The notes beneath the pieces were generated by a model that was given only the letters and a program-made list of their open reading frames with translations, searched no databases and was not told where the DNA came from. Positions 2,882-58,206 of a stretch of 60,814 nucleotides of DNA are shown here, piece by piece. This DNA comes from Candidatus Buchananbacteria bacterium (GTDB lineage Bacteria; Patescibacteriota; Patescibacteriia; 2-01-FULL-39-33; JBAYJR01): positions 70,727 through 131,540 of the forward strand of contig JBAYJR010000001.1 in assembly GCA_041665005.1 (NCBI GenBank). Reading direction: 5' to 3'. The translations under genes and the position numbers were made by a program. Within the stretch, counting starts at the first letter, position 1. Each line of letters starts with the position of its first letter.

Positions 2882-3928
2882 GTGAGCAAGCTTGTCGCTT
2901 ACAAAAAAATCATCATCATTGGTCTGATTACTTCAGTCGTTCTGATGGTGATTTTTTATTTTGCTTATCGTGGCCGGGAGGTGGTATACGTTAATCAGCC
3001 AACCAACAGCTTGGTCAGCGAGGTACCAAAATTGAGGCGGGCCTTAGACGGAGTGTTGGTGGAAAACCCAGAATTGCAAAATAAGTTTCCCGTTGCCGTG
3101 ATGGTTGAGAATTATATTGAAGCCAGACCACAGGCGGGCTTAAATCAAGCACAGGTGGTCTATGAGGCGCTAACGGAAGGTGGCATTACTAGATTTTTGG
3201 CTTTGTATGACTTAAGTGTGCCTGTGTCAAAAATTGGTCCCGTACGTTCGGCGCGTCCTTACTATTTAGATTTAGTGGCCGAATACCAGGCCGTGTATGC
3301 TCATTGTGGTGGCAGTGACCAGGCTTTGACAGAAATTACCCAGGGTAAATTTTTAGATTTAAATGAATATGCCTACGCTAAGTATTATTGGCGTGATACT
3401 ACTCGACCGGCCTCGCACGATCTTTTTACTAATTCGGAAAAACTTAGTTTGGCGGTAGCAAAATTAACCAGTAAAACCACTGGTCAATTTAAACCCTGGT
3501 CATTTAAAACAGACGGGCCAATTACCCCTTCACCGATTAAAGAAATTAGTGTTTTGTATAGCAAAACGGAAAAAAGTTATCAAGTGGCTTGGGCTTACCA
3601 AAAAGAGACCAATGATTATTTACGCTATCAAGCGGGAACCAAGCATCATTTAGAAGATGGTTCAGAAATTAAGGCCAAAAATGTTTTGTTGATGTTTGTT
3701 AAAAAGCAGGAATTAAATGATGAATTACAACATATTAATCTAACTTTAACTGGCCAAGGTCGTTTGGTGGCTTTTTTGGATGGTCGGGTAGTTGAAGGGC
3801 AATGGCAAAAAACCGATCGAACTAGCCGGACTAAGTTATTAAATAGTAATAACGAAGAATTGATTTTAAACGCAGGACCAATTTGGATTGAGTTGGTGCC
3901 CGAAGGCACGGTTACGGCTTGGCAATAA
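2882..3928 (+). CDS. DUF3048 (YerB-like) membrane-anchored protein
   Basis: AVMVEN...ARPQAGL...VYEALTEGGITRF, IGPVRSARPY, AHCGGS; N-terminal TM. Confidence 0.88.
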   Translation: MSKLVAYKKIIIIGLITSVVLMVIFYFAYRGREVVYVNQPTNSLVSEVPKLRRALDGVLVENPELQNKFPVAVMVENYIEARPQAGLNQAQVVYEALTEGGITRFLALYDLSVPVSKIGPVRSARPYYLDLVAEYQAVYAHCGGSDQALTEITQGKFLDLNEYAYAKYYWRDTTRPASHDLFTNSEKLSLAVAKLTSKTTGQFKPWSFKTDGPITPSPIKEISVLYSKTEKSYQVAWAYQKETNDYLRYQAGTKHHLEDGSEIKAKNVLLMFVKKQELNDELQHINLTLTGQGRLVAFLDGRVVEGQWQKTDRTSRTKLLNSNNEELILNAGPIWIELVPEGTVTAWQ

Positions 3929-3958
3929 TAATTATTTTTTATAAAGTTAAAATAAATT

Positions 3959-4930
3959 ATGACAAAAAACAAGAAAATTGCTTGGTGGTGTGTGTTGGGA
4001 CCAGTTTTATTAATGGTTTTAGATTTTATTATTTACGCTGGGGTAGGATTTTTAAAGGCGCAGGGAAGTTTAGCTCAAGATTCTTCAAGTTTGGTAATTA
4101 TTAATCTGGTGGCTGGTTTGGTTATGTTAATTTCGGTGATCGGACTAATAATTGGGATTGTTCTGGCAGTATTTTATAGTAACAAAAAAGAAGCGGTTGA
4201 TTTTAGTACAGAATTAGAACAACAAAAATACATTGATAGTTGGTCTTGGGCCGGCTTTTTTGGTAGTTTTGTTTATGCTTTTGGTAATCGATTAAAAAAT
4301 TGGGGCCTGGGTTTAATATTTTTATGTATAGTGGAGATGATTTTTTTTATTTTGCCTTATTTAGATAAAAATTTGGCGGCCAGTTTAGCGATGAGTAAAT
4401 CAATGTTTAGTTTAATAGGTTTAGTCGCGGCGATTTATTTGGGTATTAAGGGACGCAAGTTGGCTTGGCAAAAGGGCGCTTGGTCGTCTTTTGCGGAGTT
4501 TCAGGTTAGACAACAAAAGATTATTAAATACATTTGGTTGTATTTAATTTTAATGTTTATTGTTGGTATAATTATCGGTGGAGTGGCGGTTTATTCGCAG
4601 TTTGGTGCAGTTTTAAAGGGTGCGGATAAAATGTCTTTGGAGGAAGAAGCTAAGGTAATGGTTAGCTACATTGAGGCGCAAGGTCGGACAGTAGAGGATA
4701 AGGAAATTTTTAAAACTGCGTATATAATTGGTCGGACCGAAGGCGGTTTATTAAAAGCAACCAGCACAGTGCCAGTGGTAGTTAAGGTTGATTATGTAGC
4801 GGGTTATGCTTCGGGTTACGCGGTTGGTTGTAGCAAATTAAAACCGCCGATACCTGACTGTGAAAAACGCGCTAAAGCAGCAATGACAGAACTGTTAAAT
4901 AAATTAATCAAACAGGAGTTGGTCAAATAG
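3959..4930 (+). CDS. multi-pass membrane protein with WSWAGFF motif
   Basis: About 5 hydrophobic segments, W-x-W-A-x-F motif, soluble C-terminus with a Cys pair. Confidence 0.7.
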   Translation: MTKNKKIAWWCVLGPVLLMVLDFIIYAGVGFLKAQGSLAQDSSSLVIINLVAGLVMLISVIGLIIGIVLAVFYSNKKEAVDFSTELEQQKYIDSWSWAGFFGSFVYAFGNRLKNWGLGLIFLCIVEMIFFILPYLDKNLAASLAMSKSMFSLIGLVAAIYLGIKGRKLAWQKGAWSSFAEFQVRQQKIIKYIWLYLILMFIVGIIIGGVAVYSQFGAVLKGADKMSLEEEAKVMVSYIEAQGRTVEDKEIFKTAYIIGRTEGGLLKATSTVPVVVKVDYVAGYASGYAVGCSKLKPPIPDCEKRAKAAMTELLNKLIKQELVK

Positions 4931-55198: not shown

Positions 55199-55340
55199 TA
55201 AGTCCTCCTGTTTTTTCAGGCGGGTGTTTATTATATCAAGGTTGAAGCTTTTGGTCAATTAGTTTGATTTGTGGATAAAATACTTAGGTTATTAAAGCGG
55301 ATAATTATGGGGTCTTGACAAGATTTTTAGCCTATGTTAA

Positions 55341-55370
55341 TATTTAGATATACATCTAAATATCTAAATA
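55341..55370 (+). promoter_or_regulatory. probable ArsR/SdpR operator overlapping the promoter
   Basis: Inverted repeat TATTTAGAT-atac-ATCTAAATA plus a third ATCTAAATA ending on the A of the ATG; TTGACA at 55315-55320. Confidence 0.7.
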
Positions 55371-55663
55371 TGTCTTTAACTAATACTTGGCAAGCGTTAG
55401 GGGATCAAAATCGCCGGCAAATCCTGGATTTGTTAAAAAAGGGGGATAAGGCCGTCGCCGAATTGGCAGTTCATTTTAAAATTACCCTACCAACCTTATC
55501 ACATCATTTAATGGTGTTAAAGGCGGCCAATTTAGTCACGGCTACCAGACAAGGTCAGCAGATTATTTATTCTTTAAATTTAAGCGTCTTTGAAGAGGTG
55601 GCGGCCGAAGTATATAATTATTTTAATAAATCTAAAAAATTAATTAAAAAAAAGTATGACTAA
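55370..55663 (+). CDS. ArsR/SmtB family repressor (SdpR-like)
   Basis: ALGDQNRRQILDLL, TLSHHLMVLK, RQGQQIIYSLN; start at ATG 55370. Confidence 0.9.
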   Translation: MSLTNTWQALGDQNRRQILDLLKKGDKAVAELAVHFKITLPTLSHHLMVLKAANLVTATRQGQQIIYSLNLSVFEEVAAEVYNYFNKSKKLIKKKYD

Positions 55664-56318
55664 TTATCTTAAAGCTTCCTGGCGGACGGAAATTATTCCC
55701 GTGTTGTTAATAATTTTAGCGGTGGCCAGCAGCTTTTACTTTTATGCCAATTTTCCAGAGCAGGTGCCAATCCATTGGAATGTTTATGGTCAAGTTGATG
55801 GTTGGTCTAGCCGAGCGTTTGGCGCCTTCTTTTTCCCCGCCTTGATTACCGGGATGTATTTATTATTTTTTATTTTTCCCTATTTAGATCCCAAAAAGGA
55901 ACGTTATGAACAATTTGCCAAGGCTTATCATATTTTTAAAGGAGCGATTGTTGCTTTTGTAGCGTTACTGTATTTTTATACTAGCTTAATTGCCTTGGGT
56001 CATCAATTGTTGCCAGTCAATGTGGCAGTGCCAGTTGGTATAGGGGTATTATTTATTATTATTGGCAACTATTTAGGCAAAGTAAAAGCTAATTGGTTTA
56101 TGGGTATTCGTACGCCGTGGACTTTATCTAGCGAAGAAGTTTGGAATAAAAGCAACCGCTTGGGTGGTAAAATCTTTATCATTATGGGTTTATTTTCGGT
56201 TTTAGGTTTTTGGTTGCCCTCAACCATCTTTTTTGGCATTTTTATCACCATGGTAATTGTGGGTTCGTTAATCCCGATAGTTTATTCTTATTGGTTGTGG
56301 CGCAAACTTAATCATTAA
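55656..56318 (+). CDS. SdpI family membrane immunity protein (DUF1648 + SdpI)
   Basis: PEQVPIHWN...VDG, NWFMGIRTPWTLSSEEVWNKSNR. Confidence 0.92.
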   Translation: MTNYLKASWRTEIIPVLLIILAVASSFYFYANFPEQVPIHWNVYGQVDGWSSRAFGAFFFPALITGMYLLFFIFPYLDPKKERYEQFAKAYHIFKGAIVAFVALLYFYTSLIALGHQLLPVNVAVPVGIGVLFIIIGNYLGKVKANWFMGIRTPWTLSSEEVWNKSNRLGGKIFIIMGLFSVLGFWLPSTIFFGIFITMVIVGSLIPIVYSYWLWRKLNH

Positions 56319-57110: not shown

Positions 57111-57182
57111 TTTAGCAGCAAAGATTTGACAAAGTTTTTTGGTATGTGCTAAAGTAAAAATACCTTAACAATTACAACATTA

Positions 57183-57480
57183 ATGAGCAGGAATAGTAGG
57201 GAACGAGTTCGGTTTTAGCGAGCCAAGGTAGTTGCAAGCTTGGTACTAGAACGTTCTTGAACGCGCCTGTGAAATGACCTCGTGAATTAATTCAATAGCG
57301 GGGCCCGGCGGCGTCCGTAATCATGCGCTAACTGATGTCGTTTGGTTTTTAGAGCCAAAGCCTGAGTCAGTGAAAGTGATTAATCAATTCTTGGATTGGT
57401 TAATAACCGAGGTGGTACCGCGGGGTTAACTCCCGTCCTCTGTTGGCATTTTTTGCCAGTAGAGGACGGGATTTTTTATT
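57183..57480 (+). promoter_or_regulatory. T-box riboswitch, specifier CGC (Arg)
   Basis: GA motif AGGAATAGTAG, AGCGAG, GTTGCAA, GAA-CGC-G at 57259-57265, T-box GGTGGTACCGCG at 57411-57422, terminator TCCCGTCCTCT/AGAGGACGGGA+T6. Confidence 0.9.
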
Positions 57481-57510
57481 CCGTAAAATTCAAAAACAGG
57501 AGGAAGGTTT

Positions 57511-58101
57511 ATGAGATTAACCAGTTTTCAGTTAAGGTCAATTCAAAGAAGTGAAATTGATTTTTTGTTAAAGCCGTTAGCGGTTGATATGACTACCGGG
57601 GTTTTACGCCAAAGGACCAGAGAGGAATTAATTGAATTGTTGCCAAGTCTTCAAATTTTTTGGGATCAGGGCAAGTTAGTTGGTATGGTTGCTTTGACAA
57701 AATATGATTGGTGTAGTGAATTATCTCTGCTTTGGGTAGCGCCTAATTATCGCCAGCTTGGTTTAGGTCGGGAGTTGGTGGCTCAAGCTTTTTTTACCGC
57801 TCAGGAGCTTGCTGAAAATTTAATTTTTATTTGCACCGTTTCGCCAACTAAAGTAAATTGGTTTAAAGCATTAGGTTTTCATGAAGCCTCAGCTTCAGCA
57901 GTGCCGGATAAAAAGTGGCAAAATTATCCCGCTAATCGTCAGCCGATAGTTATGCTACAAGAAGTTTCTCATTATCTTAAGCAGTTCTGTTGCTGTCGGG
58001 AATGCGCTGGCCGGGGATGGGAATTTGCTGATCGTTGGGATAAAGTTGATTGTCCGCTGTGTTGCGGTACTGGTTATGAAAATGAACTGCTAAAAAAATA
58101 A
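57511..58101 (+). CDS. GNAT acetyltransferase, ArgA C-domain-like, with C-terminal Cys-rich finger
   Basis: GVLRQRT, LVGMVAL, ELSLLWVAPNYRQLGLG, FKALGF, VPDKKWQNY; CRECAGRG...CPLCCGTG. Confidence 0.78.
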   Translation: MRLTSFQLRSIQRSEIDFLLKPLAVDMTTGVLRQRTREELIELLPSLQIFWDQGKLVGMVALTKYDWCSELSLLWVAPNYRQLGLGRELVAQAFFTAQELAENLIFICTVSPTKVNWFKALGFHEASASAVPDKKWQNYPANRQPIVMLQEVSHYLKQFCCCRECAGRGWEFADRWDKVDCPLCCGTGYENELLKK

Positions 58102-58112
58102 GCAGAAAATTA

Positions 58113-58154
58113 GCCCCGGTATAGTTTAGAGTACTATACCGGGGCCTCTTTTTT
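58113..58154 (+). terminator. intrinsic terminator
   Basis: GCCCCGGTATAGT/ACTATACCGGGGC followed by a T-run. Confidence 0.85.
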
Positions 58155-58206
58155 AATTAGGGGCCTTTACAAATTTTTAAATTAGTAATAGAATGGGCAT
58201 AACTAT

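Follow-up and report, generated by a model that had tools for sequence, protein, structure and literature searches.

The transcriptional T-box riboswitches of Bacillota include arginine-specific ones that precede argS and arginine genes. T-box regulons are usually read as serving to increase how much of a particular amino acid is available, and this reading is used to annotate unknown genes. In Bacillus subtilis, the T-box-controlled and tRNA-Trp-responsive gene rtpA codes for anti-TRAP, a 53-aa regulator with DnaJ-type CxxCxGxG motifs and no enzyme domain. In this work we describe a T-box leader and the single gene that follows it, which encodes a GCN5-related N-acetyltransferase (GNAT). Both lie in a stretch of 60,814 nucleotides (hereafter the window; C1:70727-131540 of assembly GCA_041665005.1) from Candidatus Buchananbacteria bacterium, a groundwater bacterium with a small genome. 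Positions refer to the window and to its plus strand unless another contig or locus is named. Given the Arg codon of the leader, the nearest families of the enzyme and two conserved arginines, we read the locus as a tRNA-Arg switch controlling an amino-acid N-α-acetyltransferase that likely makes N-acetylglutamate, and we assign a probability of about 0.45 to this reading as a whole.

A complete transcriptional T-box leader was found at positions 57174-57480, comprising the Rfam match and the terminator region. The match to RF00230 (57174-57443; Rfam cmscan) scored 117.1 bits, the gathering score being 93 (E 2.9e-25), covered the full model (1-219) and included Stem I, Stem II, the IIA/B region, Stem III and the antiterminator. 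Every element of a transcriptional T-box listed in the original prediction was present, and its coordinates were right except for the start (57183), which lies 9 nt inside the Rfam match. In the structural alignment the specifier loop consists of AGUA on the 5' side (57195-57198; S-turn) and GAA-CGC-G on the 3' side (57259-57265), with the closing helix CAGG/CCUG; the AG bulge AGCGA is located at 57217-57221. The T-box sequence GGUGGUACCGCG (57411-57422) holds UGGU at 57413-57416, the predicted partner of the ACCA-3' end of the tRNA. Two competing folds are formed by the distal part of the leader: the antiterminator (57409-57440; GAGG / 7-nt bulge UGGUACC / GCGGGG-UUAAC-UCCCGU / CCUC; about -14 kcal/mol) and an 18-bp intrinsic terminator (hairpin 57431-57471, with U6 to 57477; -32.9 kcal/mol). 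They have positions 57431-57440 in common, the 3' side of the antiterminator being the 5' arm of the terminator. As the terminator of -32.9 kcal/mol competes with an antiterminator of -14 kcal/mol, the default state of the leader is off.

The GNAT open reading frame (ORF; 57511-58101, 196 aa) is preceded by the Shine-Dalgarno (SD) sequence AGGAGGAAGG (57498-57507) with 7-nt spacing to the ATG, and is followed by a terminator at 58113-58145 (feature extent 58113-58155), the second after the leader's own, which makes the unit monocistronic. A promoter-like site (57126-57155; TTGACA, 18 nt, TAAAGT with TG upstream, i.e. an extended -10) lies 19 nt 5' of the T-box match. The related cassettes L037 and L038 (see below) have TTGACA too, and TGCTAnnnT about 17 nt further on. 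Covariance-model search and motif scan revealed no second T-box in the host genome.

Relatives of the protein were sought in collections of 5.8 billion clusters (90% identity) and 1.84 billion representatives (50%). Only P0002, P0003 and P0005 were returned as near relatives by HMMER from the 1.84 billion representatives, with ArgA-like proteins ranking lower, and a profile search of the 5.8 billion clusters yielded no further relatives. P0002 is 42% identical to the window's protein and retains its putative zinc knuckle (see below), while P0005 is 31% identical and the knuckle is absent. A T-box above the Rfam cut-off precedes the gene in all three relatives (L037, 113 bits; L038, 107 bits; L118, 109 bits). 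The leaders are homologous, with 73% mean column identity across the window, L037 and L038, and compensatory changes were present in Stems I, II and III when these three were aligned. The ratio of non-synonymous to synonymous substitutions (dN/dS) in the GNAT gene was 0.074 between L037 and L118. From the Arg T-boxes of the relatives, the compensatory stem changes and this dN/dS value it follows that the pairing of the Arg T-box with this enzyme is under selection.

Outside these loci the gene is rare. No close homologue emerged when 400 genomes of the same class were searched with a profile (best score 43.7 bits, compared with 340.8 bits for the window's gene), and pattern scans of genome and metagenome contigs found only distant long ArgA-like forms of 23-33% identity. 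The latter belong to Deltaproteobacteria, Binatia and Actinomycetota, and none has an adjoining T-box. In the limited literature collection searched, no paper linking T-boxes with Patescibacteria or with GNATs was found.

The loci of the relatives have further features in common. In L037, L118 and L038 the cassette has clpP directly upstream of it, and 3' of the GNAT gene come a SAM-I riboswitch (2075-2176, 3882-3983 and 1234-1328, respectively) and then an ORF of 72-85 aa of no known family. The SAM-I scores were above the cut-off in L037 (45.8 bits) and L118 (47.2 bits) and below it in L038 (24.5 bits). The cassette of L118 is 88.6% identical to that of L037; its GNAT gene carries a 1-nt frame change, and the zinc knuckle is readable in the new frame. 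The L118 contig also encodes, at 303-1493, a 396-aa protein with a type IX secretion system (T9SS) type-A sorting domain (TIGR04183; 29.9 bits versus 23). Because of this T9SS-sorted protein the L118 lineage is probably not part of the candidate phyla radiation (CPR), and the cassette is probably patchy in its distribution, with a non-CPR lineage among its carriers.

The specifier codon was assigned by position. TBDB gives priority to positions 2-4 from the end of the specifier loop and also considers the -1 and +1 frames (PMC7778990). These positions are occupied by CGC (Arg; 57262-57264), which is followed by the trailing purine G57265 and then by helix CCUG, so the structural alignment bears out the Arg specifier that had been called from the sequence. 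A tRNA-Arg with the fitting anticodon, whose presence the original prediction had proposed to check, is encoded in the genome: one of five tRNA-Arg genes (ARAGORN) has anticodon GCG, A73 and an encoded CCA (C8:28106-28180). This tRNA-Arg(GCG) shows a Watson-Crick fit both to the CGC specifier and to the UGGU bulge, the latter of which requires A73. In long ORFs of the host, CGU and CGC make up 44% of Arg codons. Across the four leaders the helix-anchored frame reads CGC, CGC, CGC and CGG, all of them Arg codons, the CGG being the most consistent reading for one relative, and the bulge is UGGU in 4/4. It is therefore very likely that control is specific for tRNA-Arg, and transcription of the GNAT gene should proceed when the antiterminator is stabilised by uncharged tRNA-Arg(GCG).

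The encoded protein passes the Pfam GNAT cut-offs (PF00583, 42.3 bits versus 20.7). Its GNAT core spans approximately residues 1-150 and contains the acetyl-CoA motif R81-Q-L-G84-L-G86. The top NCBIfam matches are to the ArgA acetyltransferase domain (PRK05279, 51.9 bits; TIGR01890, 46.6 bits), followed by PRK07757, ArsN2, the ArgH(A) fusion and the short N-acetylglutamate synthase (NAGS) of the Rv2747 type, all of them far under their cut-offs. Among PDB sequences the top matches are 3e0k (C-terminal domain of Vibrio parahaemolyticus NAGS) and 2r8v (Neisseria gonorrhoeae NAGS, ngNAGS), with E of about 1e-7. An AlphaFold2 (AF2) model built from 23 sequences had a mean predicted local distance difference test score (pLDDT) of 82, with values >90 in the GNAT core. 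In the fold search of the PDB, ngNAGS was the top match (root mean square deviation 2.1 Å over 149 columns); 3e0k was also listed, among many generic GNATs, Mycobacterium tuberculosis ArgA (5yge) was at rank 9, and the protein N-acetyltransferases Ard1, Naa10 and Naa50 ranked shortly after NAGS. By hidden Markov model (HMM), PDB sequence and fold, NAGS is thus nearest to the window's GNAT, and the resemblance to the NAGS acetyltransferase domain that had been noticed initially is upheld.

In ngNAGS, it is R316, R425 and S427 whose side chains hold both carboxylates of N-acetylglutamate (PMC4490483). R35 of the window's protein corresponds to R316 and R143 to R425 in the PDB alignments, so that two of the three glutamate-binding side chains are kept. 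With 196 aa the protein consists of the N-acetyltransferase (NAT) domain alone. It lacks the classical two-domain layout of amino-acid kinase (AAK) plus NAT domain and shares the single-domain layout of the Rv2747-type short NAGS, but not the score required by NF005921. The C-terminal tail contains a feature absent from the original prediction, a putative zinc knuckle (57988-58074, residues 160-188) made up of C162-x-x-C165-x-G-x-G and C181-x-x-C184-x-G-x-G. These are paired exact CxxCxGxG motifs of the DnaJ/UvrA type (C162..G169 and C181..G188). PF00684 (DnaJ_CXXCXGXG) matched the tail of P0002 weakly (16.8 bits versus 32.7) and did not match that of the window's protein, for whose tail there was no significant Pfam or PDB match at all. 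The pLDDT of the knuckle region was <50 in the AF2 model.

The host assembly comprises 953,887 bp in 13 contigs, with a completeness rated at 98.9%. Ribosomal protein genes S5 and L15 adjoin one another with no space for L30 between them, and L30 was not found in the genome. The small genome (0.95 Mb) and the absence of L30 agree with the CPR assignment, as the original prediction had it. With the Escherichia coli enzymes as queries, tblastn detected no homologue of ArgB, C, D, E, G, H or I in the host genome, nor was there a genome-wide match for ArgJ (PF01960), the amino-acid-kinase family (PF00696) or ArgR. The statement that the window contains no other arginine biosynthesis gene can therefore be extended to the whole genome. 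The genome does contain argS, whose leader is short and ordinary. As the later arginine enzymes are absent from the genome, the GNAT product cannot be turned into arginine within the host cell, where a NAGS step would be an orphan.

Some further observations concern the host, its class and the surroundings of the cassette. The lack of any PF00696 match in a genome rated 98.9% complete means that a PyrH-type UMP kinase went undetected as well as ArgB. Two genomes of the same class, at L107 (G228:C1) and L109 (G313:C3), encode a full-length ArgA that, over about 430 aa, is 31-35% identical to the E. coli enzyme, and in both an ArgE-like deacetylase gene adjoins it. In the window, at 55334-56318 and two genes upstream of the T-box/GNAT cassette, an ArsR-family regulator gene overlaps by 8 nt a gene for a membrane protein of the SdpI/YfhL type (DUF1648 + SdpI); the pair resembles SdpR/SdpI-like immunity pairs.

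It had been suggested that the cassette was imported, and its SD lead was taken as a sign of this. GGAGG is, however, about twofold enriched before ORFs of the host (roughly 126 sites) and this enrichment spans all contigs, which identifies SD-led genes as a native minority; the SD lead does not serve as an import sign. The GC content of the GNAT gene (40.4%) and that at third codon positions (GC3, 0.32) are close to those of its neighbours and of the genome, and T-boxes are common in the class (see below), both of which speak against import. The occurrence in a probably non-CPR lineage supports it weakly. At the end of the contig, 1-3 kb away from the cassette, are a recombinase gene and an RNA bearing a tRNA fragment. 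Horizontal spread of the cassette at some time is plausible, while a recent import is not supported.

A T-box match was found in 26 of 61 relatives of the same class. These T-boxes have a short Stem I, score 30-56 bits and mostly precede thrS, other targets being valS, aspS, glyS and a trpB-like gene. argS was rejected as a T-box target in the relatives: after correction for strand, the T-box (Thr) precedes thrS, and argS is merely its divergent neighbour. This divergent arrangement of argS and thrS was seen in several genomes of the order, e.g. at L004, L005, L014 and L030. Two loci, L003 (G016:C23; followed 3' by a gene for a TrpB-like protein, tryptophan synthase beta 2) and L002 (G019:C10), contain T-boxes with a UGGC bulge and a canonical IIA/B region. 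Long canonical T-boxes hence occur in CPR beside the short thrS type.

Genes for a RimJ/RimL-like GNAT (PF13302) were present in eight of 35 genomes of the order, and in six of the eight a T-box is located upstream on the same strand: L120 (G022:C4), L121/L004 (G018:C1), L122/L030 (G019:C9), L123/L128 (G032:C3), L124/L017 (G021:C3) and L126 (G016:C7). Some of these T-boxes are directly 5' of the GNAT gene; one ORF lies between in G018, and the distance is about 1 kb in G016. They have a short Stem I, the specifier ACC (Thr) and a UGGA bulge. That two unrelated GNAT families stand behind T-boxes of two specificities suggests a wider theme.

In the mechanism that we propose, a sigma-70-type promoter would start the T-box leader of about 300 nt, which by default would fold into the strong terminator. 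Uncharged tRNA-Arg(GCG) would pair through its anticodon with the CGC specifier in Stem I and through its free ACCA-3' end with the UGGU bulge. This pairing would stabilise the weaker antiterminator, and RNA polymerase would read into the GNAT gene. The encoded enzyme would belong to the NAGS lineage, as an acetyl-CoA-dependent N-acetyltransferase with a single domain and a small zinc knuckle as its extension. It would acetylate the α-amino group of a free amino acid whose carboxylate or carboxylates are held by R35 and R143, and its most likely substrate would be L-glutamate, which would be converted to N-acetylglutamate.

Several observations weigh against this reading. The scores for the ArgA and short NAGS (S-NAGS) families are all below the cut-offs (51.9 versus 344 bits, 46.6 versus 202.85 bits, and 25.2 versus 180 bits for NF005921), and the position of ngNAGS Ser427 is taken by Pro145 in all three T-box GNATs. 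We know of no NAGS with a zinc knuckle. A quick maximum-likelihood analysis of 135 NAT domains placed the three T-box GNATs in a weakly supported group (SH-aLRT 80-90) with uncharacterised proteins, with which they share the motif VPxxKWxxYPxxRxP; they were apart from the E. coli ArgA clade (SH-aLRT 97) and also from the short PRK07757 clade (SH-aLRT 99). Their neighbouring clade contains ArgA-like proteins of 340-430 aa that likewise fail the ArgA cut-offs, and no arg gene was present within 3 kb of these related long forms. The designation as ArgA-like therefore holds in that the nearest families are NAGS, but the protein is outside the classical ArgA clade; its resemblance to NAGS is real, and membership in ArgA or S-NAGS is not established by these comparisons. 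Moreover, a NAGS without the downstream pathway would bring no evident benefit in arginine starvation. When the locus was searched in sequencing runs, it was found in one DNA run only and in zero RNA runs. Finally, host tRNA-Ala has A73 and on this genome alone is compatible with UGGU and with the +1 frame (GCG).

This last point belongs to the alternative that the leader reads GCG (Ala, +1) or ACG (Thr, -1), both of which frames TBDB considers. The +1 frame gives GCG, GCA, GCA and GGU across the four leaders and so mixes amino acids, whereas frame 0 is Arg in all of them. The -1 frame is ruled out in the host, whose tRNA-Thr genes have U73. For the leader of L038 the reading GAA-ACG-G (Thr) becomes available when one A-U pair is added to its helix, but its UGGU bulge speaks against Thr, since the Thr T-boxes of the relatives use UGGA. 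A non-Arg specifier is accordingly very improbable. The remaining alternatives accept the Arg specifier and differ in what the enzyme does. It could be an inducible antidote: the leader would sense a drop in charging caused by an arginine antimetabolite or an inhibitor of arginyl-tRNA synthetase (ArgRS) from a competitor, the GNAT would acetylate the α-amino group of the compound, as do MccE and RimL with mimics of aminoacyl-adenylates, and charging would recover. Removal of a charging inhibitor suits the logic of a T-box in an auxotroph that, without the pathway, cannot answer uncharged tRNA-Arg by synthesis. It is in keeping with this that broad acetylating activity on aminoacyl-adenylates is reported for RimL and MccE (PMC3817062), that six of the eight RimJ/RimL-like GNATs of the order stand behind Thr (ACC) T-boxes, and that the ArgA-like resistance enzyme ArsN2 is among the NCBIfam matches. 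The argument proceeds wholly by analogy, however, and no toxin or inhibitor is known for the system. The window's GNAT is NAGS-like rather than RimL-like, and from its two conserved arginines one would expect a glutamate-like substrate with a carboxylate. We regard the antidote as unlikely.

All points in favour of NAGS chemistry (HMM, PDB, fold) apply equally to a true short NAGS that is induced by arginine starvation as a first step and whose product, N-acetylglutamate, this symbiont would pass on so that a host or community member could finish arginine synthesis. Precedent is given by the single-domain short NAGS Rv2747 and by ArgH(A) fusions (PMC4490483), and the probably non-CPR lineage that also carries the cassette may have the full pathway. 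Nevertheless, neither an exporter nor a partner is known, the short contigs of the relatives are uninformative on arg genes, and the related long forms have none within 3 kb; such a hand-off appears rather unlikely. A still different function would be that of a starvation-induced protein acetyltransferase, docking through its zinc knuckle and acetylating a ribosomal protein, ArgRS or a protease substrate in order to slow arginine demand. Zinc knuckles are a protein- or nucleic-acid-binding type of motif, but P0005 is without one and still has the T-box. Similarly, the position of Ard1, Naa10 and Naa50 near NAGS in the fold ranking, the clpP gene directly upstream in L037, L118 and L038 and the parallel with the Thr T-box/RimL-like pairs are countered by the small-molecule enzymes that are the nearest sequence relatives and by the conservation of the carboxylate-binding arginines. 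We consider protein acetylation quite improbable. Preference is thus given to the amino-acid N-α-acetyltransferase under tRNA-Arg control.

The pairing of an Arg codon with this enzyme has been kept across four loci, yet the host cannot make arginine. Given a host without arginine synthesis, either a one-step "pathway" is useful to a symbiont, by product hand-off or signalling, or this enzyme lineage has another role. Taken together, the Arg and Thr T-box/GNAT pairs suggest that acetyltransferases are an overlooked output of the surveillance of tRNA charging in ultra-small bacteria. We put forward, as a speculation that is unlikely to be right, that T-box-controlled GNATs constitute a recurrent, undescribed branch of T-box regulons in CPR, in which auxotrophs, being unable to respond by synthesis, would answer uncharged tRNA by neutralising charging blockers such as amino-acid antimetabolites or aminoacyl-adenylate mimics, or by re-tuning translation, and of which the Arg/NAGS-like and the Thr/RimL-like pairs would be two independent inventions. 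The system itself is small and consists of one RNA, one tRNA and one enzyme in about 1 kb.

Compared with the T-boxes of Bacillota, the leader has the same specifier loop with S-turn, AG bulge, Stem II, IIA/B region, Stem III, UGGN bulge and competing terminator. It differs in being the only T-box of a CPR-type host and in its target, which is a lone GNAT instead of a synthetase, a pathway operon or a transporter. It also differs from the T-boxes of the host's relatives, which have a short Stem I and 30-56 bits, in being full-length with 117.1 bits. With anti-TRAP of B. subtilis the system shares a T-box target outside the synthetase, biosynthesis and transporter classes as well as CxxCxGxG motifs; apart from the motif, Pfam and PDB searches of the tail gave no similarity in sequence. 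With the S-NAGS of M. tuberculosis (Rv2747/ArgA; PDB 5yge, 5yo2) and the NAT domain of classical ArgA, the window's enzyme has in common a single GNAT domain, counterparts of R316 and R425 and the acetyl-CoA motif, while its scores under the cut-offs, the replacement of Ser427 by Pro, the separate group in the tree, the added zinc knuckle and the absence of arg genes set it apart. MccE and RimL, like the window's enzyme as read here, are GNATs acting on the α-amino group of an amino-acid-like compound tied to tRNA charging (PMC3817062). They inactivate mimics of aminoacyl-adenylates and offer a close analogue to the Thr T-box/RimL-like pairs of the relatives, whereas the enzyme of the window falls in the NAGS-like branch and not in PF13302.

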